From Phyllosticta citribraziliensis (lineage: Eukaryota), in assembly GCF_038025025.1 (NCBI RefSeq), contig NW_027117342.1, positions 992,001-1,056,000 of the forward strand: a stretch of 64,000 bases of DNA, read 5' to 3'. Position 1 is the first letter of the stretch; each line of letters begins with the position of its first letter. Under the pieces are notes generated by a model. The model searched no databases and was not told where the DNA came from. It was given only the letters and a program-made list of their open reading frames with translations. Positions 1 to 16,244 of this stretch are shown in pieces. Both the position numbers and the translations under genes were made by a program.

Positions 1-1279
1 TCCTTTAGTATTTTAAAGCGCTCTAGCTTAGATTCCTTAGCGTCCTTATTATTAGACATTTTAGTAAAGATGGTATTATAGAAAGTAACGGCCTTAAGTA
101 TAAGTATCTTAGGTTTATTATAAATATAGGAGTAGACTTTAAGGCGCGCTTTAGTAGGCAGGGTGTTAATTAAGTTTATAAGTTGCTTACTAAACTTAGA
201 AGAGACTAGGATATTAAAGCTAACTATACTAATATAACGTAATAGCTACTGCTACTATTTATAGGTAACCATACTAGGTAGGAGAGTAGGCAAACCTATA
301 TTACCTAGAGCCACCTTGTTTATTTACTTTAATAACGCCTTACTTATTATAGAGACTGTTTTTATATAGGGTTTTAGTAAAAATAGGTAAGGGCCAACTT
401 CTAGTTATATCTAGATATTAAAGTAAGGTTTAAGTTATTACTTTTATAGAGAGGAAGAGATAGAGGATTAGTATAAAAAGGACTCTTTTAGGTAATAATA
501 TTTTAGTATAAGGGTAAGGTTTAGAAGGACTAGAAGTAAGAGGTTATAGGTATAGAGGGTAAAATAGTCTAATAGATAAGGAGGGTCGTTATCTAAGAGT
601 AAAGGTAGTAGATAATAATAGGTAAAAGACATAGGAAACTAAAGGTATTATAATCTAGAATAGAGTTAACCTATATACTAAACGCTTAGTTAGAGTCAGC
701 TTGTAGCTAAGGTTATAACTTATAGTAGTAGGGCGGTTAGTATTAAGTAGAACCTAGCTAAGAGTAAGCCCGATTATTTTAGGCTAGCTAACTATATAAT
801 CTAGTTCTAGTAAGTATAAAGTACTAAGATAACTAAGGCTAGTAAAGTGTAGTAATAGATTTAAAAGATGATCTAAGTAGACGAGCTAGAATAAGTAGTA
901 GAGGAGGAGAAGGTAAAGAGAAGTAGTAGTAGTAGGATAGAAGGGTAAGGATTATAGAGTAAGAGATTTAAAGAGAGTAGGCGGTTACTTAGGCGCTTTT
1001 ATCTACTTCTAGGCGTCTAGGAGTTAGGATCCTATAAGAATTACTACTATAGGTAATTAATACCTAGCTAGCTGCCTCTCTTATTCTATAGCCTTAGCTT
1101 TAATACTTACCTAAACCAACTCTACTTCCTTATAATAGGTATCTTATTAGATCATCCTCTTCCTTCTATAAGGTATAGTTATAGGTTTAGTTTATATTTA
1201 TTTTTTAACTATTAAGTCTACGTCTAATTATTTCTATTAGTACCTATATTAGCACACCGCTATCTAAATCCCTATTAAC

Positions 1280-1800
1280 TATACTATTAGGTCGATCCTT
1301 ATTCTAAGTCCTCTAGGCTCTTAAGATTCTGTTTAATATTCTTATAGGTATTAGTAATGCTCTTATAGTAGGTGAAGTCTTAGGCAGCTACTACTTATTT
1401 AGTAAGTATTTTATTCTTACCCTTAGTAAGAGCTTTAATTATTTCATTATAGTACTTCTTTAAAAATTAATATTAGTGCTGAATTAAATATTAAGAAGGT
1501 AGTTAAGGCACATACTAGGGTGGTATTATAGTTTAGAATAAGAGTATAGACTTCTTTAAACGCCTTACTTACTTTAAGGTCACTATTCTTATCCTTAGAG
1601 AGTAGGCTAGCTATATACTTAGCCTTAGTAACCTCTATAGCGCGAACCCTCTTAATACGGGCTAGCTTAGCTTACTTACTTTTAAGCTCTACTTCTATCT
1701 CCTTAAGCTTAGCCTTAAGCTTAGTAAGAAGTTTAATATCTTCCTTACTTACTAGACGTTCTATTAAGATAGAGATCCCTTAGAAAAGTAAGCTTAATAA
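1280..1800 (-). pseudogene. RIP relic of a coiled-coil-like protein gene with one intron
   Basis: Minus frame reads EDIKLLTKLKAKLKEIEVELKSK*AKLARIKRVRAIEVTKAK...; GTATGT donor near 1514 and CTAAT branch-like site. Boundaries approximate; no family recognised. Confidence 0.4.
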
Positions 1801-2146
1801 TAGGGAGGAGATAAGCAAGTTACTAATAGATAAACCTAATTACTAATAGTATATATTAAAGGCAGTAGTTGGTTATAAGCTTAAAGTTAAGTAGTAGTGG
1901 CGGTGGTAGTAGTAGTAGATTAAAGAGGGAAGGTAGAAGCTATAGGTAAAGAGTTATAAAGAAGCCTTTTTCTTCTACTAATAAAACTTAGGTATATACT
2001 AGTATAATAAACTGCTACTATTCTTCTCTTATCCTATAGCCATTTTTACTCTCTTTATTAAATCAACTCTGCCCTTTAGGCAGTCTTATAAGTCTACTTA
2101 ACCTAGTCTTTAAGAGCTATAGGTAGCCTTGAGTTACTCCTTACTA

Positions 2147-2538
2147 TTACTTAACTTTAATTAATATTAATAAACGTGCGCCTGCTTAATATCTACCTAT
2201 AGGTTATATAATCTCATCCTTATAGGCATCCTTCTAAGGTGAGAGCACCTATAAAGAAGGCTAATAGTAGCTCTTAATACTAATTACTATATAGCGTTTT
2301 CTATAGTACACTTACCTTTTAAATAAGTAAGATAATATTAGATCTTTACTTAACTTTAACTAATTTTAATAAATATATGCCTACTCCTATAGGTTATATA
2401 ATCTTATTATTATAGGCATCCTTCTAAGGTAAGAGCAACCTATAAAAAAACTAATAGTAGCTCTTAATACTAATTACTATACGGCGTTTTCTATAGTATA
2501 CTTACCTTTTAAATGAGCGAGTTAATATTAGATCTTTA
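2147..2538 (-). repeat. Tandem duplication of a ~190-200 bp exon+intron module (2 copies)
   Basis: 2147-2346 and 2347-2538 share cctataggttatataatct...ggcatccttctaaggt...ctaatagtagctcttaatactaattactat...cttaccttttaaat...atattagatcttta. Each copy has a minus-strand AG|GTAAGT donor and a TAG acceptor. Confidence 0.9.
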
Positions 2539-2699
2539 TTAATACTTCTAAGCGGGATAACTATTTTCCTTACTATTATTTAAATTTAGCTAGGTCTATA
2601 GTAAGGACATGGCATCTTATTTGCTATTACTTTAATAAGTTATACTAACTACTTAGTAGATAAGGGTAAGGTTATTCTAACCGCCTCTGCCTTAACTAT

Positions 2700-4992
2700 A
2701 TTATAGTATCCCTAGAATATTTCCTAGGTCCTCCTCCTCTAGGAAATATAAGAAAGGCTTAAATCGACCCTAGTTATATTAATAAGCTTAATAAGAGCTT
2801 AGCTAAAGCTATAGGACTATTAGAAGGACTTTTTAGTAAGCTTAATAACTCTAATAATAATGCTATTATAGTGAGTAATCTAGGTAGGGGATGCTAGAGA
2901 TCTAAACTTTCTAGTAAAGATAATAAAGATCTAGACTATATAGCTTAGACTAGTCTTTAGAATGGCCTATCTTAACTATTATACTACTATACTAGCGAGC
3001 TATCGCTTCTAGAAATGCCTATATAGATGTGCTAAAGTGCTAAGGTCTCTAATAGTGAGCTAAAGCTTGACCTATATTAGTTAGAGGCTGTAGGTTAGTT
3101 AATTAAGACTCTATAAGAGAAGAAGAGCGCTATTTTAGTAGATAAAATAGGCCTTAGTAAGATGCTAGTAGTAATAGCCTTAATTCTTAGCTTAAGAGCT
3201 CCTAAAAATAAGCTAATCCTTATTATAGCGCCATCCTCTATCCTTAATATATAGGAGAAAGAGATAGCTATATTAGTAATAAATCCTCTATTATATGTTC
3301 TAAGTACTAAGCATAGTGTGTCACTTAAACCTATTAAAGTTAATAGGTTTAACATTATATTAGCTACCTATACTTAGCTTTAAATAGAGTTTAACAACTT
3401 CTAAGACCTTTTTAATAGTATTATAGATACTTAGTATAGATACCCCTAGCTAAATAGCACTTACCTCTTTAGCTATTTCCCCATCCTCTCTTATTTATAG
3501 GGCTATATTGTTCTAGATAAAGCGTATTATATGCGCAATACCTAAACTTTAATAAATAAGGGAGCAAGTTTACTTAAGGTAGAATATAGGGTAGTAATAA
3601 CTAGCAGCCCCCTTATAAATAACTACCTAGATATTATATCTATATATAATTTTATTTAAAGTAATCCCTAGGGAGATTTAGTATATTTCTATAGTATAAG
3701 TTTCTAGTTTTTTATCCGTCTCCTATAGTATAGCTTATTATACTAATAGTTAAACCTAGCACTTTATCTTTAAGAAGTTAACTAAATAGAAAGCCTAGTA
3801 ACTAGAGAAGGATAGAAATATAATTCTTATATTAAGTCTAAAGGATATTATACTTAGGTATAAGAGAGATAATTTCTTTAATAATAAAATTATCTATAAT
3901 ATCCCTAAGCTAGTTATAATTAAAGAGAATGTCCCTCTTAATAAATAAGAGAAACGCGACTAATAAATAACAAAATACTAATAGGATAAATTTATATAAT
4001 AGAAATAGCTAGAAGATTATAAGAAAGGAGTTATAAGCTTAGGAATCCTTTCTAAGTATAAGGCCTAGAAGTAGATACATCTTACTACTATAAAGCTGCT
4101 ATATCTATTATGCTACTTCCTAGAGGCTAGTAATAATAATAAGAAGGCACTATATAACCTAGAATTTTACTATAAGCTGGTCCTCTTAATATAAAGCTCT
4201 TAGAATGAGAGTAGCAGGTTAATAAGATACCTAGAAATTGTTTAGGATAGGAAGTAATATAGTAAGGTAATTATTTTCTATAGATATTAGATAGGGCTTA
4301 AGATATTTAGCAACGCACTTAACTCTAGTAATATTATATAAAAAGCACTTAATAGTAGTATTAGTATTAATAAGAGGGCGCAGATTATAGTAGAGTTTTA
4401 AAATATAGTATTAGGACCTTAGGTTCTACTAGCTACCTCTAGTATAAGTAGTAAAGGTCTAACTCTTACTACTACTAAGACTATTATACTCCTTTTACCT
4501 AACTAGAATCCTAAAGTCGATGAGTAAAGCTTTAGCAGAGCAGTATATAGGGGCCAGACTAATTATATCTATATATATTAACTACATGCTATTTCTTTAA
4601 TTAAATATAAAATTTATTAAGATTAGAGGATAAAGCTCCTAAAGTCTAAGTTACTAATTAAGCTTAATTTAATTAGATTAGAGCTAATAAAGGAGATTAT
4701 AATATAGATAGAAGATAAGTTCTATAGTTATCTAATAAAGATTATAAGAAATAAGGTAGTTAAGACTATAGAAAGATTAAAAAGGGCAGCAGGCTTACTT
4801 ATAGCTTTAGTAGCACGCGATATAGATAATAAGATAGAATTTAAGAATAAGAAGAAATAGGACTTAACCCTAAGTATAGATAAGCTAAAAGACCCTAAGA
4901 AGTCTAAAAATAAAGGACTAGGCTCTAAGGAATTAGAGTATAGAGGTAGCAAGATAGAATCTAAGGAAGAGCAGTTTAAAAAGATAAATTAG
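2700..4992 (+). pseudogene. RIP-inactivated SNF2-family (SF2) helicase/ATPase
   Basis: Q motif LKLDLY*LEAVG* (~3060-3098). Walker A ILVDKIGLSK at 3132-3161 (=ILADEMGLGK). Motif Ia LILIIAPSSILNI*EKEI. Walker B IVLDKAY at 3507-3527 (=IVLDEAH). Motif III TSSP at 3600-3611. Motifs V/VI KGLTLTTTKTII...N*NPKVDE*SFSRAVYRGQT at 4453-4560. Relic intron ~3695-3760. Start approximate. Confidence 0.92.
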
Positions 4993-5979
4993 TTAGAGAC
5001 TAACGCCCCCTCCTAGTTCTAGTAATAACGGTCACATACCAGGCCACATTGTATATACTAGGCTGGGCCTATTAGGGCGTGAATTGCCTGCTTTAGTATA
5101 GATTTAATAAGAGGATATAAAGGGTAATAAAATTTCTTAGTTACTAGAAAACTAGATAAATAGATAAAAGCTCCTATTATTCTATATCTATTATTCCTAT
5201 CTATACTATAGTAAGGAGGCAAGCTAAGTTAATAGTAGTCGCTCTTATTACTAATTAACTTAAGTATATTAGACCTAGCAATCCTAATAGATAAGGGCAT
5301 TACTTATCTATAGCTATAGTAAGTACTAATCACGTCTATATAACCGTAGCTTTTTAGCTGGGTTCTTATTATATGCCAGCGACTATAGGAATGGCACTAT
5401 AGACTCCTACTATTTCTTAAGAACTTGTATAAAGTAATAGAAGAAACTATTTAAATACGTCCGTGCTAGATATAAAGAAAAGTCCTATTATATAGCAATA
5501 GAATATTATTAACTAATAACGCTAGTAATAAGAACAGGGCTAGAAGGTTAGTAGGATAGTAGAGCTTATAGTATCTTTAATATAAGGCAGAATAGGTAGA
5601 CTAGAATAGGAGATTTATTAATAGCGTTCTATAGAGTATGCCTATAGCATGTTAATAAAATAAAGGTCTCTAAATGTTTAATACTAAAGTTTCTATTTTT
5701 AGCTACTTAAAATGTTTCTATTTAAACCCTTACTAAATTACAGCGGCCTAATAGTGTCTTATTATAGAGTCTTAGCTATTATATCTCTAATATTACCCCC
5801 TACTAAGGCCTTACTTATAATCCTCTATTACTCTTTATCTTATTTGCCTATAAGTCTTAACTTTTAAACTAAGCTGGGTTATTTATACCCCTTTTACTCT
5901 ATATACCCTGACCTAACTAAATCTATTAGATGAACTCTTATTTAGCCTTCTTTCTATATAAGGGTGATCCTTACCTGCA

Positions 5980-6950
5980 CTTAGGCTATAGAGGCGATAT
6001 AGAACGTAGTTAAAATAGTTTTAGTATTATATATAGCATCTTAAGTAGGTTTAGATCTTTAATAGTATTAGATAAGATATAGACTTAGTAAATATAGTGG
6101 CTCTATACTATTATATTATATAGGCCTAGAATGTTTATATTAACTTTATATTATTCTATAATAATTTAGTAGAGGATATTAACTAGTATGGGCTTTTAAA
6201 CCTTTCTAAGGACTCTTCTAAGTATCTTATACTCTTTATTACTTAGGGTCTTATTATATCCTTTCTATACCCCTAAGATGTTATTAATCTCTCTTACTAG
6301 AGGCTGAGGTACTAACTTTCTCTTTTTATAATTTTTACTAATATTAGGCTCTTTTAGTAGTAGGGGCTCTAGGTCTTTAAACTAAGTTCTAAGTAGGGAC
6401 TTATAGAGCTTATAGAAGCCTGTCTTTAATATATTCTTAGACTTATAGAGATCGAAGTCCTTAAAGTACGTAATAGGTTTATAATTACTAATAAAGACTG
6501 CCTATTTAATCTTATAACCTATAACATCCTATAGTAAGCTTTTAGTAGATAAGGACCTTACTACTAAGCTAAAATAGGCTTTATTATCCTCTAAACTGCC
6601 TATAAGGTGTCTAATAATGAAGACTTATTTTATTTTAGTAAGAATAAGGTTAATTTTATATGCTATACTGTCTTTATTAGTGACGTGCCTTGAGGTTTAG
6701 AACTAGAATTATATTATAAGGGCCTAATAGAGGTTGATCTAGATTATACTATATCTTTACTATTAGGAAGTGTGACTAGGTTAGGCGGCCTTACTAGAAG
6801 AGGCGGCATTACTTAAGGATCCTAAGGCGTGTTATTAGTTAGAGTAGGCAATCTAGGGCGTTTATATCTCGCGTGCGGTTAGATAGGCGTGTTATTAGTT
6901 AGAGTAGGCCAGCTAGGGCGTTTATATCTCACGTGTAGTTAGAGGGGTAT
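5980..6950 (-). pseudogene. RIP relic of an unknown protein gene
   Basis: Long protein-like minus frame (...RHLIGSLEDNKAYFSLVVRSLSTKSLL*DVIGYKIK*AVFISNYKPITYFKDFDLYKSK...) with only RIP-type stops; no family recognised. Confidence 0.4.
6825..6943. repeat. 60-bp tandem repeat x2
   Basis: aggcgtgttattagttagagtaggc..ctagggcgtttatatctc.cgtg..gttaga starting at 6825 and 6885. Confidence 0.9.
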
Positions 6951-8039
6951 AATAAGTAAAAACCTTAAGATTATAACCTTTAGCTCTATCTATATATAGA
7001 TACTAGTTATATGAGAGTTAAAGTTAAATAGCTAAGGTAGTAGAGGTAGGTTGTATAGTAGTTAAGAGGATGGCTCTATAGGATAGGAAACCTTTACTTT
7101 ATATTATTTACTTATTATAAAAGAGTTAAGTAGTAAGGTTATAGCACCCTTAAGCCTTAGACCTTACCTTTATAAACTAAGTATGGCGTGGTAGAAAAAG
7201 TAAGAGCGTATTATCTAGTAGGTATATATAGTAGTAATAGAGGCTCTTAAGTTACATAGCATCTTAATTTATAATATAAAAATTAGACTTGCCCTGTAGA
7301 GACGGAGCTTGACTTAGTATGTAATAGATAGAGGCTTAAGGAGACTATAAGCTAGGAGCGTATAGTTAGAACTAGCGGCGGATTTATAGAGTTACTACTC
7401 TAGTAGAGTTATAGATTAGAAGTATAGAAGTAGTTATTAGAGCGAGTTAATAAGCGCTAAAAGTAATAATATAGAATTAGTAAGCTAGGATAGCTCTAAA
7501 AGAAAATTTAATAAAAAGATAGAAGCTATTAATATCTATCTTCTTTATAATTAATAATGCGTGGCTCCTTAAGGGTCTTCTTTCTACATCTTCTCTACCT
7601 AAGCTGCATACTATTATAATCTTAATAATGATTATTTAATATGCCCTTAGTAGCTAATTTATCGCGTATTTCTATTATCTATAAGCTATAAGAGCTTATA
7701 ATGCTGCCTTTTTATATTCTACCTTTAACTTACTAGGCATGATTCCTATTTTTTATTATATAGTTAGTGGGGTGAAGAGGGTAGTTAGGTCTTATAGATA
7801 TATATAAGAAGAAAGTTAGATGTATTAGATATAACCTAATAGATGCTACTATAATATATAATCTAGATAATATATAAAGTATAATATCACCTTAGGATGT
7901 TAGCTGCCTAGGGCGGCCTAGAAGTTCCTATCTTAGTACTAGGTGCTAAGTGCCCGGGCGGTGCCTAAGGTAAGGTAGGCTATAGTAAGGTACCTATAAC
8001 TAATACGTAAAATATTATTCTATACTCTACTCTATACTT

Positions 8040-8900
8040 ATAGCCTATCTACCTTTATAGCATCCTATCTCTCTATTTCTTCTATAATTAAAGCTCTATA
8101 AGCTAGTTAGTAATACCTATACGCTACTAACTATTAAGAGCTTAGATAATAAGAGAGCTAACATATCAGCTCTACTATTAGCTTTACTACTATTCTCTCT
8201 TATAACATCTTAAGCGCAAACGGTATAACTTCTATGGCTTATATATATACTAATATTATAAATAATAAGTTGCTAATATTAACTATCTATAGCCTAGGTT
8301 CTAGGTTTTTAGTTGCTATTATTATTACTATTAAAATTTATCCTTCTCTCCTAGGTAATATATAGGGTGTATTTAGCGCTTTCTATAGGAGGGACGCGTA
8401 TAATATATACTTAGCACGTAATATTACTACTTCCTACCTAATCTATAATAAAAGCTCTGCGGCCTCTAACTTAGTAATACTACTATAGGCTAAGAATCTG
8501 CCTCGCCTTTTTATACTAGATACTATATTAGATATAGGCTTATATCCCTAGTTATATAGTTAACTAATAAATACCAGACTAAATACCTAGCGCTAACTTT
8601 AAGTGCTATATTACGATGCGAATTCTAGTATAGAGTAGCGGTTATTATAGGAAGGCATTTATACTTTTCTCCTTATTATAATATAGTCTATAAGTTCTTA
8701 GTAATTCTGCCGACTTCTCTTAGTTTCTTACTAGATAATAACTAAGCCACGGAGCGCATTATTTAGATAGATAACTAGGTAGAAAAGTCTTAATACTAGA
8801 TTATAAATAAGTTAAAAAGGTCGTTTATTATTCTAGTATACCTACTAACTATTATAAAAATGCTTCCTCTTTCTTATAGCTTAGTTCCTATACTAAATAT
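8040..8900 (-). pseudogene. RIP relic of an unknown protein gene
   Basis: Protein-like minus frame (...CAPWLSYYLVRN*EKSAELLRTYRLYYNKEKSINAFL**PLLYTRIRIVI*HLKLALGI*SGIY...); no family recognised. Confidence 0.3.
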
Positions 8901-9888
8901 AGAGTTTATATTATATTTTAGTAAGTTGTATAGATACCTGTATTTATAGGTATAGCCCTATACTTTTAATATATTAGAATGCCCTAATTGTTCTAATACT
9001 ACTTAAGGATATTATCTAATTATCTATATTATAGTTTTCCTAGATATTAAGATAAATCACTCCCTTAGTATTATAAATAATGCTAAGCGACCCTATATAT
9101 TACTACTACTCTAAGCTATTTATATTCTAAATATGTAGTTAAGTTAGTATAAGAGTCTAAGCTATAATCTACTTTAACTATAACCTATAATCTAGCTAGT
9201 AGCTTATATAATATAAAAGTAAGCCTCTCCTACCTACTACTCCTATAGTCTGCGTCTTTAGATAAGTAGCTTTCTACTTTTACCCTATCTAGTAATACCC
9301 CCCGCCGCGCCGTCTAGGACTTAGCATGTATTTAATAGGAGTATCTAAGAGCTCTTCTAGTTAGTATCCTATATACTACCTCTATAGCTAAGTAAGCCCC
9401 TCTTCTATATTTATAACTAAGCTACTCTTAATACTAAACTCTAGCTTTTAGCTTTTACTTTATCCCCTCTAATACCACATCTTATAGAGTACTAGACGAT
9501 GACATGGCACTCTAGTACATAGTAAGGAAAAGGATAGAGGCGAGAAAGGTAGGTATATAGTAGGGCTAGTACTAGCTAGATATTAATATTAGACTTACTA
9601 GAGTAATAGGCATAAATAGGTTATAATAGGTAGATGGCATACTAGTACTAAGACCGTGGTATTTTAGAGCTGATATAGAGAGATAGAGGATAAGAAGGTT
9701 AGATATAAACCCTATACCCTAGTAAATAGCATGAAATAATACTGAGTAATAGAATATAAGGAGTAAGAAATTAACCTATAGTAGTAAGTATTAAGGCTAA
9801 ACTACCTAACTAGATAAAGCTCTACTATAATCTAGTAGCTATATATACCTAAATAATAAAAGGCGAGTCTTCTTAACTATAACCTTAA

Positions 9889-9951
9889 CTTTTCTTAATA
9901 CTATACTACCTTTCCTTAATACTATACTACCTTTTCTTAATACTATACTAC
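9889..9951. repeat. 21-bp tandem repeat x3 (probably coding, 7-aa unit)
   Basis: cttt(t/c)cttaatactatactac three times in tandem. Confidence 0.9.
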
Positions 9952-12269
9952 TTACTCCTACCTCTAGCCTTTAGTTATATCTTCTATTAAGTCTGCCTAC
10001 CTATACTCTAATATAGTATCTATCTACTATCTACTTATTATATAACTTCTCTAATTATATTAATCTACTTATTATCTAAGCTTTAATATTATCTTTATTG
10101 GTATGCCCTTAGCTAATCTATATAATATAAAGCTGACTAGTATAAGACTAGGTACTTTACTTAACTATTTAGCTCTATATTATAGTAATTAAGAATCCTA
10201 ACTAGAATGACTAGGCCCTAAGTAGTATAAAGCTAGAAGATAAAGTAGTAAGTATATTCCTATTAAATTATAAGCTTAATAGTTAATAGGTGCCTTACTA
10301 TAAGCTTACTAAGATTGCGAATATAAGAGAAGAGTGCTACTAGATAGAGGAAGAGCGCTATTAACTCTATAATAGGAAGATATATCTCTAGGAGTAGTTT
10401 TACTCTAGTAAGGTTAGCTATAAGGCTCTAGAAGAGATTAAGAACCTAGATAAGTAGCGTATAGTAAGGGCTATTACTAGGATTATTAAGATGACTATTA
10501 AAGCTATAGATCTAACTAAGGAGTACCTTAATAGCTTTAAAGAGTAGCTATCTAGAATGATATCCTCCTCTCTAGGATGTAGGAGTACCTAGTAGATTAC
10601 TAAGCTATTTACCTTTATTTAAAATAAAGTATAGAACCTAATAGTATATAGGGAAGTAGGTTAACTAATACTATAATAATTAAAGTAAAATTAAGGGTGT
10701 TTTTAGTAATAGGTATATTAGGCGCTGTTAATTCTAAAAGGTGATATAGGGGATACTATATAGGTTAGAGTGTAGATATATTTAAGGGCCATGCTAGTAG
10801 TTAGGTAGATAGGAGTTTATTAATTAGCTTTACCCTATAAGAGGAATAAGGTATTAACCTAAAGGTTAGACCTAGTTCTAAGATTATTTCTAATAAAGCC
10901 TATATATAAAGACTCTAAGATGTGCTTATACTAGGTAACCTACTTATATACTATATACTATATACAGCGAAAAGCGTGAGGTCTATAAGGAATATAATAG
11001 TATTAAGTAGGAGGTATAGTATAGGTAGTAAGGAGCAAGCTATAATATAAATAACTAAGTAGAGGATATTACTATTTTAAGTAGTATACTTATATATAGA
11101 GTTAGGGCAGCGCGTCTAGTAATAAGATACTAGGTAACTATATATACCATACCTTATAATAGAGTGCCTCTATATATAGGTCGTGCGCAGCTATATATCT
11201 AGTCTATACTTAGTTAGTTAGTCCTAGGCACGTACGCGGTACGTCTTAGCCCCCTATCTAGGTAGCCTATAGTATATACTTACTAATATTACCGCGCGCA
11301 CGTCCTCTACTTATACTTAATATAATTATTTTTACTCTTCTAGTTAAGATACTATATAGGTCGCCCCTCTACCTATATATATTATATATACTATAGCCTG
11401 CCTCTCTACTCTAAGCTTAGGGGTCTCTTATAGTTAGTATTAGCTACCTAACCTTAGGCCTATAGCGTGATAGGATAGGAAGCCCTAAAGCCTAGTCTAG
11501 CTATTATATTTTATAGTCGTGTCTTTGCGTCTCTAGTCCTAAGCTAAGACTAGATCTAAGTTGCCTAACCTACTACACCTCTACTATTTCCTTACTTAGT
11601 TGCGTACTTATAATAATACAGCTAAAGTAGAAGCCTAGAAGGCAATTAAGGGAATACTAATATTAAAAAAGTCTATATATAAGTCTACCCTACTAACTCT
11701 AATAGATACTAATACTTTTAGTACCTAGAGTCCTATATCTCCCTATATACTTAAGACAACATATATCATACTACTATATAGTAGTATTATATATTATATT
11801 CTATAATTAATAAATATAGGCAAGAGCTGACTGTAAAACTAAAGCTAATATATAGGCATGGTATTAGTAGTGCTATTAGTAGGAGAAGGGGTGTCTTTTA
11901 GGTCGCCTTAGTAGTTAGTCTAGATATAGCATGCTATAGGTAACTACCTACCTAGTAGGCTGCTCTATATTCCTATCTTAATACTTAGAGGCGTCTAGAA
12001 AAGCCCTAAAGATACGCAGGAAATAGAGTTTATTAGATAAACCTATAGGCGCGGATAGTAAGGTTATAAATATACCTAAATCTATAAGTAAAAAAAAATA
12101 AAAGGGACAAGACTTATAACTAGCTATAATTATTAGTAAAGGCCTAGATTGTTATTTAATAGTAACTTTCTAAATACTATTATAATACTATCCTTTAATC
12201 CTTTATATTAATATTAAAGAGAGAATTTCCTAAACTATTAACTAAAGAATAAAAAGACTCCTAGGGATA

Positions 12270-13270
12270 TAAATAATCTTAGCGCTATACTTAGTCTAGT
12301 ATAGCATCTATCTCTTCTAGGTAGCTGACTCCCTTTTTAAGTCCTATATCTAGATCTAAGGTCTTTTATTCTAGTAGCTGGTTTCTTAGTAGATTATTTA
12401 TAAAATATAAAAGTCTATAGTACTAGGTAGGGAAGTTAGCTAGCGGCCATATTAATATTATTATATCTAAGGATTAGGCAGGTATATATAACCTAGCCTA
12501 GTTTAATAGGCCTAAGCTGGGCGTGCGAAAAAGGCGGTTATCTAGTAATTAATTAGTATAGATAAGATCTACTTATACTAATATATATTATAGCTCTTTA
12601 TCTAGTCCCTTATCTCTATAGCCTTATAGAATCTTTAATTAGTAGTAGTAATCTAGGTACTTAAAGAGTTTAGATAGATAGCTCCCTCTAGATCCTTTAC
12701 CTATTACTAAAATATGTTGCTTAGTAAGAAGTAGAGTGATAGTGCCTATAGTAAAATTATTAAGATTAGAATCTCTATATTTATATATAATCTAGTAAAC
12801 AGCTATAAGTAGCGCTTAACTATATACTTAAAATCTAACTCTAATATAAGAATATTAGGAATCTTCTAAATATTAATAATTATACTCTACTTTAGAGTTG
12901 GCTTTTATAAGAGTTAACTAATAACTCTTAGGCATTTTATAATACTCTTATTAAGTCTAGCACCCTATCTATTACCTCTAACTTAGATTATTATACAGAG
13001 GTCTGTAGCGTGGTAAAGGAGGATACTAGTAGTAGTATTACTAAAGGTAGATATCTATAACTAAGTAACTTTAACCTAGGCGATATTAATAATTCTAGAA
13101 GTAATATAGATAGGCACCTAATAAGTTTTAGTAATAGTAATAAGTATAGACTTATACTACTCCTATAAAATGCTTAATAATAGGAAGAAGCTAGGTATAT
13201 CCTTAGGGTACTATAGTATATAACTAGTTAATAGCTTATCTAGGTCCTCTTAATCTATTATTACCTTTAT
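12270..13270 (-). pseudogene. RIP relic of an unknown protein gene
   Basis: About 330-codon minus frame with only TAA/TAG stops (...ILLYHATDLCIII*VRGNR*GARLNKSIIKCLRV...TAFFARPA*AY*TRLG...); no family recognised. Confidence 0.3.
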
Positions 13271-15017
13271 AATTAGGATTTACAGCTTAGGAGTAGGGGT
13301 TAATTATATAGTATTTATACTAAAAGGAGGAAATATTAAAGTTTAAGGTTATATATATATAGGGTTATAAGGTAGCAAGTTAAGTAGCATATAGATAGTT
13401 ATAAGTTAAGAAGGGTTAGTTATTAGGTTAATATAGGATACTAATAAAGTTAGTAGGATATATAACTTTCTATTCTCTATAGGGGCGCTTATATATAAAT
13501 AGAGAGAGATAGAGATAAAGAGAGAAGTTTTAATACTCTAGGTAGATATTTAGTTATAGTCTATTAGTATATATAGGAAGCTAAGTAGGTAGATATAGTA
13601 GTTATAGAGTTAAAGAAGGTAAAGGCTAAAATAAGGGTAGTTAGCATATAGGACCTAACTCTTATATAAAATATATAGAATAAGGAAGTAGCTTATTAGG
13701 AATTTTTAGTATATATACTAAATTCTTTAGTATATTAAGTTCTAGGTAATAAGTACTACCTATCTTATAACTTAAAAGTATCTCTTATTAAAGCTCCTAT
13801 TTAAATCTTCTCTTTCTTATCTATTATACTACTACCCTCCCTCTATAACTATATGCTCCTTAAATAATTCTTACGGGCTATTACCTTATACTAGGCTATA
13901 TACTACTACTACTTAATATCCTTAAAGTCCTAGGTTAGATTATATATTATACCTACCTAAGTCACCTTATAACTATTATATTTAAAGCTATTATAGGCCT
14001 CCTTATAGATATTACTAAGGAACTTATAAAGGCCTTAGTCTTACTTAATATTACTAGCCCTTTTATAGAAGACATAGTTAAATAGTAGTTAAGGCTAGAG
14101 AGGATATAATTAGTAATAAAATCTTACCTATCTTATAGATTATTAATATATAAATTAGCTCTTATTAATTTTTATTATAGTTTCTCTATTAATTAAGGTT
14201 GCACTTCCTGTCCTTAAGTAATAATATAGATAAAATAGCTAGAGCTAGTATAAGTTATTACTAACCTCTATAATATTAGTAATAGTAGAAAATATATATA
14301 TATAAACTAAGTATAGCTTATATCTATATAGAAGTTACTAGTTACTAAGAGCTCTATATTAGTATCCTTTATATATGCTATAATTTATAATTAGTATACT
14401 AGGTAGAGGATAACCCTCCCTAGGTTAGAAGGTTAGAATATATATAAAGTAGTCTATCTTATGCTATATTAATATTAGTATATTTAGCAGATCTACTATG
14501 CCTAGTCTTTATAGGGAGGGGATAAGATGTCTATCTTTATTAAGGTAGTATTTATCTATATTTACTTTATATTAGTATTGCTTTATATTAATCTTATTTT
14601 GCGTGAATATACCTGGCATAGTAAATTTTATAGTAATGTTAGGGGTTGGTAATATAGATGTTAGAATGATGCAATGTATCTTTAGGGCGCAATTGTTGGC
14701 GCGTCGTGTAGATGTCTAGGTGGCGCCGCAGGTGTTCCAGTAGAGGCTTGACCATTAGCAACGAATAGTAAGCAGCGAGCGTCGAGGCAATCACCGCTGA
14801 TCGAATGTGACGTAGGTTGTATGGCATTAAGGTCGCGTTTGCTGGGAATTAGGAGACTGTAAATAGTGAGCAGAGATAGCAAGCCTCGTCACGGTCTATG
14901 ACTGTGGACGGCGCGTAACGTGAAGAGGGTCAGAAGCTGCCGCTGTGTTAGAGGGGAGCGAGACCAAAGTGCAATGCTCGGTAGATGATCGACAGACTTC
15001 CTTCATTGTCCCGCGTC

Positions 15018-15312
15018 CTGACCTGTCTGCTGCGCGTGAGACGGACCTCCTCTTCGCCAAGAAGGGCCACGATCTCATCAAGTTCTGCGTCCGCGAAGAC
15101 ATTCCTTTCACTGTCTTTGAGAGCTGGAAGGACATTCACGCCGTCTGCAAGGAGATTGTGTAAGTGTCCCTTTGATATTCGCAAGCATCAACATGCTGAA
15201 CCACTGCAGTGAGGGCAAGAAGTCCGTCCAAGAGGCGGCGGTCGAGGGCCACCAGCAGTTCAAGAGTGGTGAGGCTGGTGTCAATGGTAGCGCCAATGGC
15301 GCGGCTAAATAA
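15018..15312 (+). pseudogene. 3' fragment of an MtnX-like HAD-superfamily phosphatase (5' three-quarters missing)
   Basis: DLSAARETDLLFAKKGHDLIKFCVREDIPFTVFESWKDI... is the C-terminus that follows the GDGVSD motif IV in this fungal family. Intact intron 15160-15209; stop 15310-15312. No GDG or DFDGT upstream. Confidence 0.85.
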
Positions 15313-15459
15313 GCATTTGGCTTCCAGAGCACGAGCATGTATAGAGCAGGTGGATAGAAGGGGCGTCTACAAGTATGCTCATGGCGGTGCACGCCAGAAC
15401 AAAGAGCCACAGTGGGTGTCGAAAGAAATTACAACTCCTGGCAATACAAGTGCGCCTAG

Positions 15460-15558
15460 GGAGCGTTCATTCGCTGCTTCGCCTGCGCTCAAGGAGCATT
15501 CATTCACTACTCCGCCTGTGTTTAAGGAGCATTCATACACCTATACATGCGCTTAGGA
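15460..15558. repeat. 33-bp degenerate tandem repeat x3
   Basis: Units start ggagc(g/a)ttcat at 15460, 15493 and 15526. Confidence 0.75.
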
Positions 15559-16244
15559 AGTGGTTGTTCATTACGGCAGACAGACCGGGAGAGCCTCATT
15601 TCTTTTGACACCCACTGTGGAGCGCTCTAGAAGACATAGAATGATAGAATGGGGTGCGAACCAGACAATATACATCGCATTGGTACAGGTAATGGGCCTT
15701 GTGGACCTGAAGGGTCTGTTCCAATCAAGGCGCCTTGGATGCAGATCTCGGGGCGCTGCGCTGCCAGCGCATCAGACAGTCGAACAACCGCAAGCCCCCG
15801 AAGCCACAACGCTCGCTCCTCCGCCGGTCGCAGCCATGGATGTTCATTCGACAGGGCGCGTGGTGTTTCAGATGGCCTTCATACGACAGCGTCCGCTAGG
15901 CGTTCGTGGTCGATGGAACCATTGCCCTGGTGTAGCATTTCATTGTCTCGCGCTTGCCCCGCGGGAGTTATCGGACTCTAAATAATGACGACGGGACCGC
16001 TCCACGACAGTGGCATTGGATTCTTCAACGCAACCAGGTCGCATCCAACTGCCCGACCCGTCGTGCGCAGACCCCTCTCTTCCCTCAGCCCTTCGCACCC
16101 CAAAGAACACGACGCAACCACCAACTCTCTCGCCTATAAAGCCATTGGGACGCCCAGCAGCCGCCCACGACTCGCCGACTGCACCCACCTCACACCCCCC
16201 CTTCCTCGCCTTCGCAACCAAGCCAACCAAACCCACCACCGGCC

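Follow-up and report, generated by a model that had tools for sequence, protein, structure and literature searches.

The window analyzed here comprises 64,000 nt of the genome of Phyllosticta citribraziliensis (C5:992,001-1,056,000, where C5 is contig NW_027117342.1 of the 31.35-Mb, 22-contig assembly). The first 14.6 kb of the window are AT-rich with a strong RIP signature, and they constitute the in-window part (positions 1-14,620) of a 41-kb RIP block, which extends over approximately C5:965,440-1,006,620, at a locus between a SHE9-like and a NECAP-like gene. One flank protein clusters at 90% with proteins named from P. citribraziliensis, P. citrichinensis and P. citricarpa. The block edges are sharper than 0.4 kb and give way to gene-dense DNA with a GC content of 0.55. 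The characteristics of RIP-mutated DNA were seen, namely an excess of TpA, depletion of CpA and TpG, and directional C>T and G>A changes relative to a non-RIP homolog. Across the seven parts of the block, the RIP substrate index ranges from 0.18 to 0.32, with 0.24 in the LTR element; in the flank it is 1.24. In the SNF2 gene described below, GC content, TpA/ApT and (CpA+TpG)/(ApC+GpT) are 0.29, 1.69 and 0.32, compared to 0.57, 0.54 and 1.24, respectively, in the flank.

The SNF2 gene is a pseudogene of two exons on the forward strand. Exon 1 (2700-3695) contains the N-terminal region and motifs Q, I, Ia, II and III (PF00176), and exon 2 (3760-4992) contains a RING-less linker, motifs IV, V and VI and a charged tail (PF00271). 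The 2700 start is nominal; homology to the intact Phyllosticta capitalensis protein P0284 (see below) begins at 2943. The exons are separated by a relic phase-0 intron of 64 nt (3696-3759, forward strand), recognized by the change of frame between the two Pfam halves and by the exon border of the homologs. The intron ends with AG, and its first base is A instead of the donor G, itself a RIP-type change. With X placed at the stops, the segment 2700-3710 matches SNF2-rel_dom (PF00176; E=8.2e-20, 71.5 bits) and the segment 3700-4992, in a second frame, matches Helicase_C (PF00271; E=8.4e-6, 26.4 bits); two control frames over the same gene gave no Pfam match. The motifs start at positions 3075 (Q), 3135 (I), 3219 (Ia), 3510 (II), 3600 (III), 4264 (IV), 4447 (V) and 4525 (VI), and together they span 3075 to about 4557. 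In comparison with intact P0284, 27 of the 54 motif positions are identical, 16 others become so by reversing C>T or G>A changes alone and 11 are neither. The preliminary description of this DNA had claimed that eight SNF2 motifs could be recovered in order by reversing RIP, with one relic intron between them; both claims hold (43/54 motif positions identical or reachable; a single intron, common to the homologs), and the profile matches to both halves agree with them.

Over the aligned codons, 156 of 582 are identical to P0284 and another 143 are RIP-reachable; the resulting 299/582 compares with a mean of 99 and a maximum of 128 in 500 shuffles, a control that is somewhat lenient because the alignment itself is RIP-aware. 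The 742 codons of the fossil include 48 stops, exclusively TAG (27) and TAA (21), and no frameshift was found over this length, from which we infer that the gene was intact until RIP struck. P0284 retains motifs I, II, III and VI. Judging from its family, the product of the fossil gene would have been a compact, RING-less SNF2 ATP-dependent DNA translocase.

A phmmer search with the fossil against 1.84 billion representatives yielded 698 matches at E<=0.001, of which the 150 listed are 24-38% identical. RIP-aware rescoring of these 150 placed the P. capitalensis SNF2 protein KAK8232938.1 (P0021) on top, with 114 bits in the C-terminal half and 62 for the next match. Five named records of P. 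capitalensis contain P0021, the contigs being 1.87-1.89 Mb long; when it was compared with 5.8 billion proteins, none exceeded 39% identity among the 120 matches listed. A word search with the damaged N-terminal half recovered no homologs among 922 candidates. KAK8223320.1 (P0284), of the same P. capitalensis SNF2 protein, is the intact relative used above. No P0284 loci were found in metagenome or viral contigs, and in Atlas the protein falls into generic SNF2 clusters only; some of these include viral members, which is no sign of transfer. Its matches to solved SNF2 structures are many and about equally weak, and the single-sequence predicted folds of P0284 and of gene 2 of the orphan module described below have a mean pLDDT of 35 and 34, respectively.

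P. citribraziliensis itself contains a further relative, a GC-normal, decayed paralog among ordinary genes at C2:211,184-212,275 (hereafter the C2 paralog). Over the first lobe, its identity to P0284 is 42%; it has one stop, its motif I is eroded and a second lobe could not be detected. It is the apparent ortholog of P0284 in this species. The intron after motif III is common to the fossil, P0284 and the C2 paralog, and the second intron of the latter two is absent from the fossil. In an IQ-TREE analysis of 16 rows, the three form a clade with support of 99/97, within which P0284 and the C2 paralog group together (98/95). This clade belongs to a wider long-branch group with proteins of Aulographum (KAF1984085.1) and Botrytis (TGO28593.1, KAF5873348.1), sister to the host Rad5/16-like genes. 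A FastTree analysis of 39 rows, with the raw fossil row, agrees with the IQ-TREE result; with the RIP-ambiguous residues masked, the wider group stays (99) and a metagenome protein joins the trio at 90. For the wider group, attraction among fast lineages is possible, because the fossil forms a long branch and has an unusual composition. In AU tests, forcing the fossil together with each of four host RING paralogs was rejected in every case (p = 1.3e-6, 3.4e-7, 8e-10 and 3.5e-5), and pairing the fossil with the C2 paralog was not rejected (p=0.15).

In Rad5, Rad16, Uls1 and HLTF, a RING finger is inserted between motifs III and IV, and the host RING paralogs carry their RING at the same place. 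The spacing between motifs III and IV is 278-341 codons in the four RING-bearing host paralogs, 192 in P0284 and 200 in the fossil, which leaves no room for a RING in the latter; P0284 gave no match to RING or HIRAN. The intact SNF2 set of the host includes ISWI-, STH1-, INO80-, CHD1-, MOT1-, MIT1-, HIRAN/RING- and RING-type proteins, the names being inferred from their domains. The case in which the fossil would be the ortholog of a core remodeller, i.e., of host RAD5, RAD16 or ULS1, is excluded by the AU rejections (p<1e-4) and by the lack of the RING insert. The preliminary description had left it undecided whether the gene clusters with these host genes or elsewhere, and whether related genomes keep intact copies; the trees set the fossil apart from the RAD5/RAD16/ULS1-like genes, together with P0284 and the C2 paralog, and P. 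capitalensis keeps P0284 as an intact relative. On these sequence comparisons, the fossil represents a fast-evolving lineage next to the Rad5/16-like group, and its clade is patchy, the best intact matches listed being only 24-38% identical. In P. capitalensis, P0284 gives the impression of a fixed host gene, and the setting of the C2 paralog among ordinary genes is likewise that expected of a host gene.

The remainder of the 41-kb block consists of one high-copy element and a series of RIP-killed coding remnants. Upstream of the window lies an LTR retroelement of 8.2 kb (C5:969,594-977,790), with 401-nt repeats that are 95% alike and with matches to RT and RNase H. It occurs at a minimum of 39 other places (40 of 133 candidates were scored) and is the sole high-copy part of the block. 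A coding remnant of about 700 codons, delineated by codon-model segments, occupies window positions 1-233 on the reverse strand and continues upstream to C5:990,142; this single-copy remnant (C5:990,142-992,233) has no match in Pfam, PHROGs, NCBIfam or PDB. The codon model also indicated a remnant at 6040-6687 on the reverse strand, with no family match. Long RIP-killed frames of 300-760 codons are seen at C5:986,800-989,100 (forward), C5:990,142-992,233 (reverse) and C5:966,450-967,400 (forward). All three are without family assignment, and they are the best candidates for a hidden mobility gene. The other long coding remnants of the block likewise yielded no family in the Pfam, NCBIfam, PHROGs and PDB comparisons. 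No conserved housekeeping gene was recognized by Pfam scans in the approximately 33 kb of unique block DNA, and, apart from the orphan module, no host DNA matching the block was found in 508 kb of GC-normal loci, which partly overlap.

Several repeats accompany these features. Just 5' of the SNF2 gene are two direct copies of 153 nt, 88% alike with a spacing of 190 nt (window 2196-2538), and a short tandem duplication with a period of 60 nt is located at 6825-6943. Another, with a period of about 71 nt, is found at C5:979,390-979,810, 5' of module gene 3, where the non-RIP module likewise has tandem repeats. Within window 11157-11343, a piece of 75-190 nt is 68-81% similar to pieces of RIP blocks at C13:1,308,862 and C5:49,249, and is perhaps a small shared terminal motif. 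The latter two contigs also share 58 kb that are 99.99% identical in inverted orientation (C13:1,280,001-1,338,180 and C5:20,001-78,184), a pair that spans GC-normal genes flanking both sides of a 40-kb RIP block; close to the contig ends, such identity reflects either overlap in the assembly or duplication of very recent date.

An orphan module of three genes is present at three places on C5 with different flanks: one non-RIP copy and two RIP copies that are mutually inverted. The non-RIP module (C5:2,047,690-2,053,040) is 1 Mb from the block. Its gene 1 contains stops, and the reading frames of genes 2 (258 codons) and 3 (about 320 codons) are open. For gene 3, a search of 5.8 billion proteins yielded 1585 candidates of 146-466 aa, none of them a homolog. 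On either side of the non-RIP module is a Ser/Thr-rich gene; the two are paralogs whose C-termini resemble each other, the arrangement expected if the module had inserted into a tandem pair. Copy A, on the reverse strand at C5:1,007,037-1,004,158 (window 12,158-15,037), is homologous to C5:2,047,689-2,050,522 and contains the upstream region, gene 1 (approximately 13,800-14,628) and gene 2 (12,515-13,300). Of the 2722 columns aligned with the module, 2267 (83%) are identical or differ in the RIP direction, the transitions numbering 654 in the RIP direction and 125 in the reverse. Copy B (C5:968,384-981,293, forward strand) is RIP-mutated and interrupted by the LTR element. The copy A and B pieces score 96-351, and the nulls reach at most 46 or 61; only for the upstream region of copy B was the null not exceeded. 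The SNF2 gene is located within the 23 kb between copies A and B and has no other physical tie to either. Long terminal inverted repeats were considered and rejected, the inverted segments near the block ends being two diverged copies of a gene module, the left of which is set back 3 kb from the block edge. Between copies A and B there are about 250 transversions in approximately 1.1 kb, probably too many for the two to trigger RIP with each other.

The right end of the block adjoins a truncated host gene. An MtnX-like HAD phosphatase gene is represented by its 3' end alone (15,018-15,310, forward strand), which matches positions 172-214 of the 220 in NF007103 (E=0.004). The homology of copy A is firm to window position 14,985 or so and weaker to 15,037, the phosphatase break falls within about 35 nt of the end of this homology, and the RIP signal dies away about 400 nt short of the proposed right end. 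No full phosphatase gene was found in the genome, and its 5' part is absent from the left flank of the block; the arrangement is thus not a clean insertion with an empty site. In view of the single 3' end and the lack of a full copy, the lineage may have lost its MtnX-like phosphatase through insertion or rearrangement. In run X1, contigs carry a different sequence before 15,018, which reads as the upstream part of the phosphatase and may derive from other fungi; X1 covers the right flank piecewise, with 0-3 differences, but no long piece falls within the block. The same holds for X2, and at a depth of about 3 such missing cover is uninformative; none of the contigs in these runs spans the block. 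In run X3, of a related organism, the 3' part of the phosphatase adjoins the same downstream genes. Run X5 has the same junction (a piece covering 14,906-15,075 with 0 differences) together with seven short block pieces with 0-1 difference; the junction is therefore not an assembly error, although X5 may be the same strain. Farther downstream, window 15,407-15,620 contains imperfect 33-nt repeats, is matched by many contigs in all four runs, is replaced by 77 other letters in X3, and is possibly a small dispersed element.

The SNF2 fossil is single-copy today. At the DNA level, the search of its own genome found only the fossil itself, and window 1-14,700 matched only copy B and the two short pieces of 68-81% similarity; for the block, copy number at this level covers the DNA outside C5:982,001-992,000. 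A protein search of the genome with the fossil gave 14 other matches of 21-33% identity; of the 37 PF00176 matches in the genome, this fossil is the only stop-riddled one. No present-day duplicate partner was thus found at the DNA or protein level, which leaves no set of genomic copies from which the consensus suggested in the preliminary description could be derived. RIP needs a near-identical partner, and the gene is 16.9 kb from the LTR retroelement and 7 kb from copy A. Of 11 other insertion sites of the LTR element, 3 have GC-normal DNA within 1.5 kb, and at these the leakage of RIP, measured as CpA/TpG depletion, reaches only 450-600 nt past the LTR; the other eight are embedded in deeper RIP DNA and are uninformative. 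Because this reach is far too short, the unique 23-kb middle of the block, including the SNF2 gene, most likely existed twice at some time. The suggestion in the preliminary description that the gene was once duplicated or lay in a repeat is supported by this distance and by the observation that its RIP is as saturated as that of the LTR element. The argument is not airtight, since in Cladosporium fulvum RIP-affected single-copy DNA, totaling 2.5-32.7 kb per chromosome, has been read as leakage (PMC9453070).

Genes and ends indicative of mobility were sought throughout the block. Six-frame Pfam scans revealed no transposase or recombinase; in the LTR element, the same scan recognized RT and RNase H despite their RIP damage and missed the integrase, and a damaged transposase could therefore escape detection. 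The non-RIP homolog of the block-end gene gave no Pfam match either. DUF3435 had no match in the genome, in a search whose positive control was also silent and whose sensitivity RIP lowers. As terminal repeats, the best candidates are a 10-nt direct and a 7-nt inverted match, with the left boundary not fixed. As to the earlier proposal that the gene belongs to a large mobile element, the sharp block edges and the module in three different flanks speak for it, and the failure to find a transposase, recombinase or terminal repeat speaks against it.

Taken together, the 41-kb block probably entered as mobile or duplicated DNA. That it was itself mobile is what we infer from its architecture, and we give about an even chance to the SNF2 gene having been the passenger of a derelict composite mobile unit. 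The gene would have been carried as a passenger or accessory in a large multi-gene mobile unit, with the orphan module as its terminal part, and the present block would combine two related units, oppositely oriented, with an LTR element that inserted later. A near-identical second copy in the same nucleus during the sexual cycle would have caused RIP to saturate the unit and kill the intact gene, and the partner would later have disappeared, by loss or by segregation, so that a single copy persists. The enzyme that moved the unit may be unrecognizable after RIP or may have been supplied from elsewhere. The uniform RIP over 41 kb, the sharp edges, the distance of the gene from the LTR element, the module at three places, the position of its non-RIP copy between two Ser/Thr-rich paralogs, the cut phosphatase, the patchy SNF2 clade and the X3X3R8 precedent favor this reading; against it stand the single copy, the lack of a detected mobility gene or terminal repeat, the flanks that do not rejoin, the early fading of RIP at the right end, the lack of a closer physical tie between the SNF2 gene and copy A or B, and the resident appearance of the relatives.

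The main alternative, somewhat less likely, is that lineage-specific host genes of an accessory region, namely an old paralog of a Phyllosticta SNF2 family and the orphan genes next to it, were segmentally duplicated or rearranged without any mobility of their own, killed by RIP and reduced to one copy. The absence of a recognized mobility gene or terminal repeat, block flanks that do not rejoin into one gene, and a clade of P0284 and the C2 paralog (98/95) whose members look like ordinary resident genes would all be expected from such a history. The presence of the orphan module in three unrelated flanks and the cut host gene at one end argue against it, as do the lack of a recognized housekeeping gene in the unique 33 kb and the fact that, in the 508 kb of GC-normal loci, the module alone matches the block. 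A bolder conjecture, which we consider unlikely, is that the RING-less SNF2 clade is a hallmark of undescribed large fungal elements with no known transposase or captain; the block would then be a derelict element ending at about 15,017, the module its conserved terminal core, and the P. capitalensis gene a domesticated copy.

It is rather improbable that the SNF2 ATPase was part of the machinery proper of undescribed large DNA elements lacking a classical transposase, e.g., for opening chromatin at the donor or target site. The gene being intact when RIP struck and its patchy long-branch clade would fit such a role, as would the recurrence of SNF2-like helicases in a RIP-killed multi-gene repeat of another fungus (PMC3017866). 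However, no SNF2 gene was found within the 60 kb searched around the non-RIP module, and the closest relatives look resident; this part of the preliminary description thus obtained no direct support. Least probable by our estimate, and very much so, is a never-duplicated single-copy gene mutated by leakage from neighboring repeats over many generations: the gene is indeed single-copy today and C. fulvum offers a parallel (PMC9453070), but its saturation equals that of the LTR element 17 kb away (copy A being 7 kb away), leakage reaches only 450-600 nt and the block edges are sharp. Copies A and B, moreover, are probably too diverged to have triggered RIP in each other.

The pairing of SNF2-like genes with RIP-killed repeats has already been published (PMC3017866). 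What this locus adds is a RING-less SNF2 lineage that has no name yet and of which an intact member is available, together with a candidate for the boundary and a reference module untouched by RIP. The lineage is intact in P. capitalensis and was lost twice in P. citribraziliensis, once by RIP and once by ordinary decay. The boundary and the reference module bear on the large RIP-killed multi-gene units that have been left unexplained since X3X3R8. If such units were self-mobile with a chromatin motor of their own, they would represent a type of cargo-moving element outside the Starships; if not, the case shows that RIP, following a short-lived duplication, can wipe out genes that are unique today over tens of kilobases.

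A Starship is recognized by its captain, a DUF3435 tyrosine recombinase at the 5' end, by its cargo, and by direct repeats and occasionally TIRs at its boundaries (PMC11162782). Like these elements, as characterized there, the block has a corresponding size range, sharp boundaries, a cargo of genes, a low copy number and susceptibility to RIP ("derelict") (PMC11162782). In contrast to them, neither a DUF3435 captain at either end nor a direct repeat was found, and the block is therefore not classed as a Starship. In the open-access literature we found no report of SNF2 genes as cargo of Starships or giant transposons, and none of Starships in Phyllosticta.

Among known proteins, the Rad5/Rad16/Uls1/HLTF group is the nearest named group to the fossil in both trees. 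The fossil lineage differs from it in lacking the RING insert, P0284 also lacks HIRAN, and the intact host copies of the group are separate. The P. capitalensis SNF2 protein is the closest intact relative, with clade support of 99/97, the shared intron, no RING and a similar length; its identity to the RIP-damaged translation is only about 27%, or 51% with RIP-reachable residues counted, and it has a second intron and is intact and uncharacterized.

The closest published parallel to the block is X3X3R8 of Parastagonospora (Stagonospora) nodorum, for which a single paper was found in the open-access literature. This repeat is affected by RIP and combines Rad5/SNF2-like helicases with a Rad6-like enzyme and ORFs of unknown function; the authors interpreted it as an endogenous gene cluster (Hane and Oliver 2010, PMC3017866). 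Gene models exist for nine copies of X3X3R8, and the unit encodes three helicases, arranged in tandem, besides the Rad6-like conjugating enzyme. The block has one copy and one helicase, and Pfam scans of it gave no match to a Rad6-like conjugating enzyme. By description, both are multi-gene, RIP-disrupted units of a Dothideomycete, combining a Rad5/SNF2-like helicase with uncharacterized ORFs, and for X3X3R8, too, no transposase is named in the accessible text (PMC3017866).
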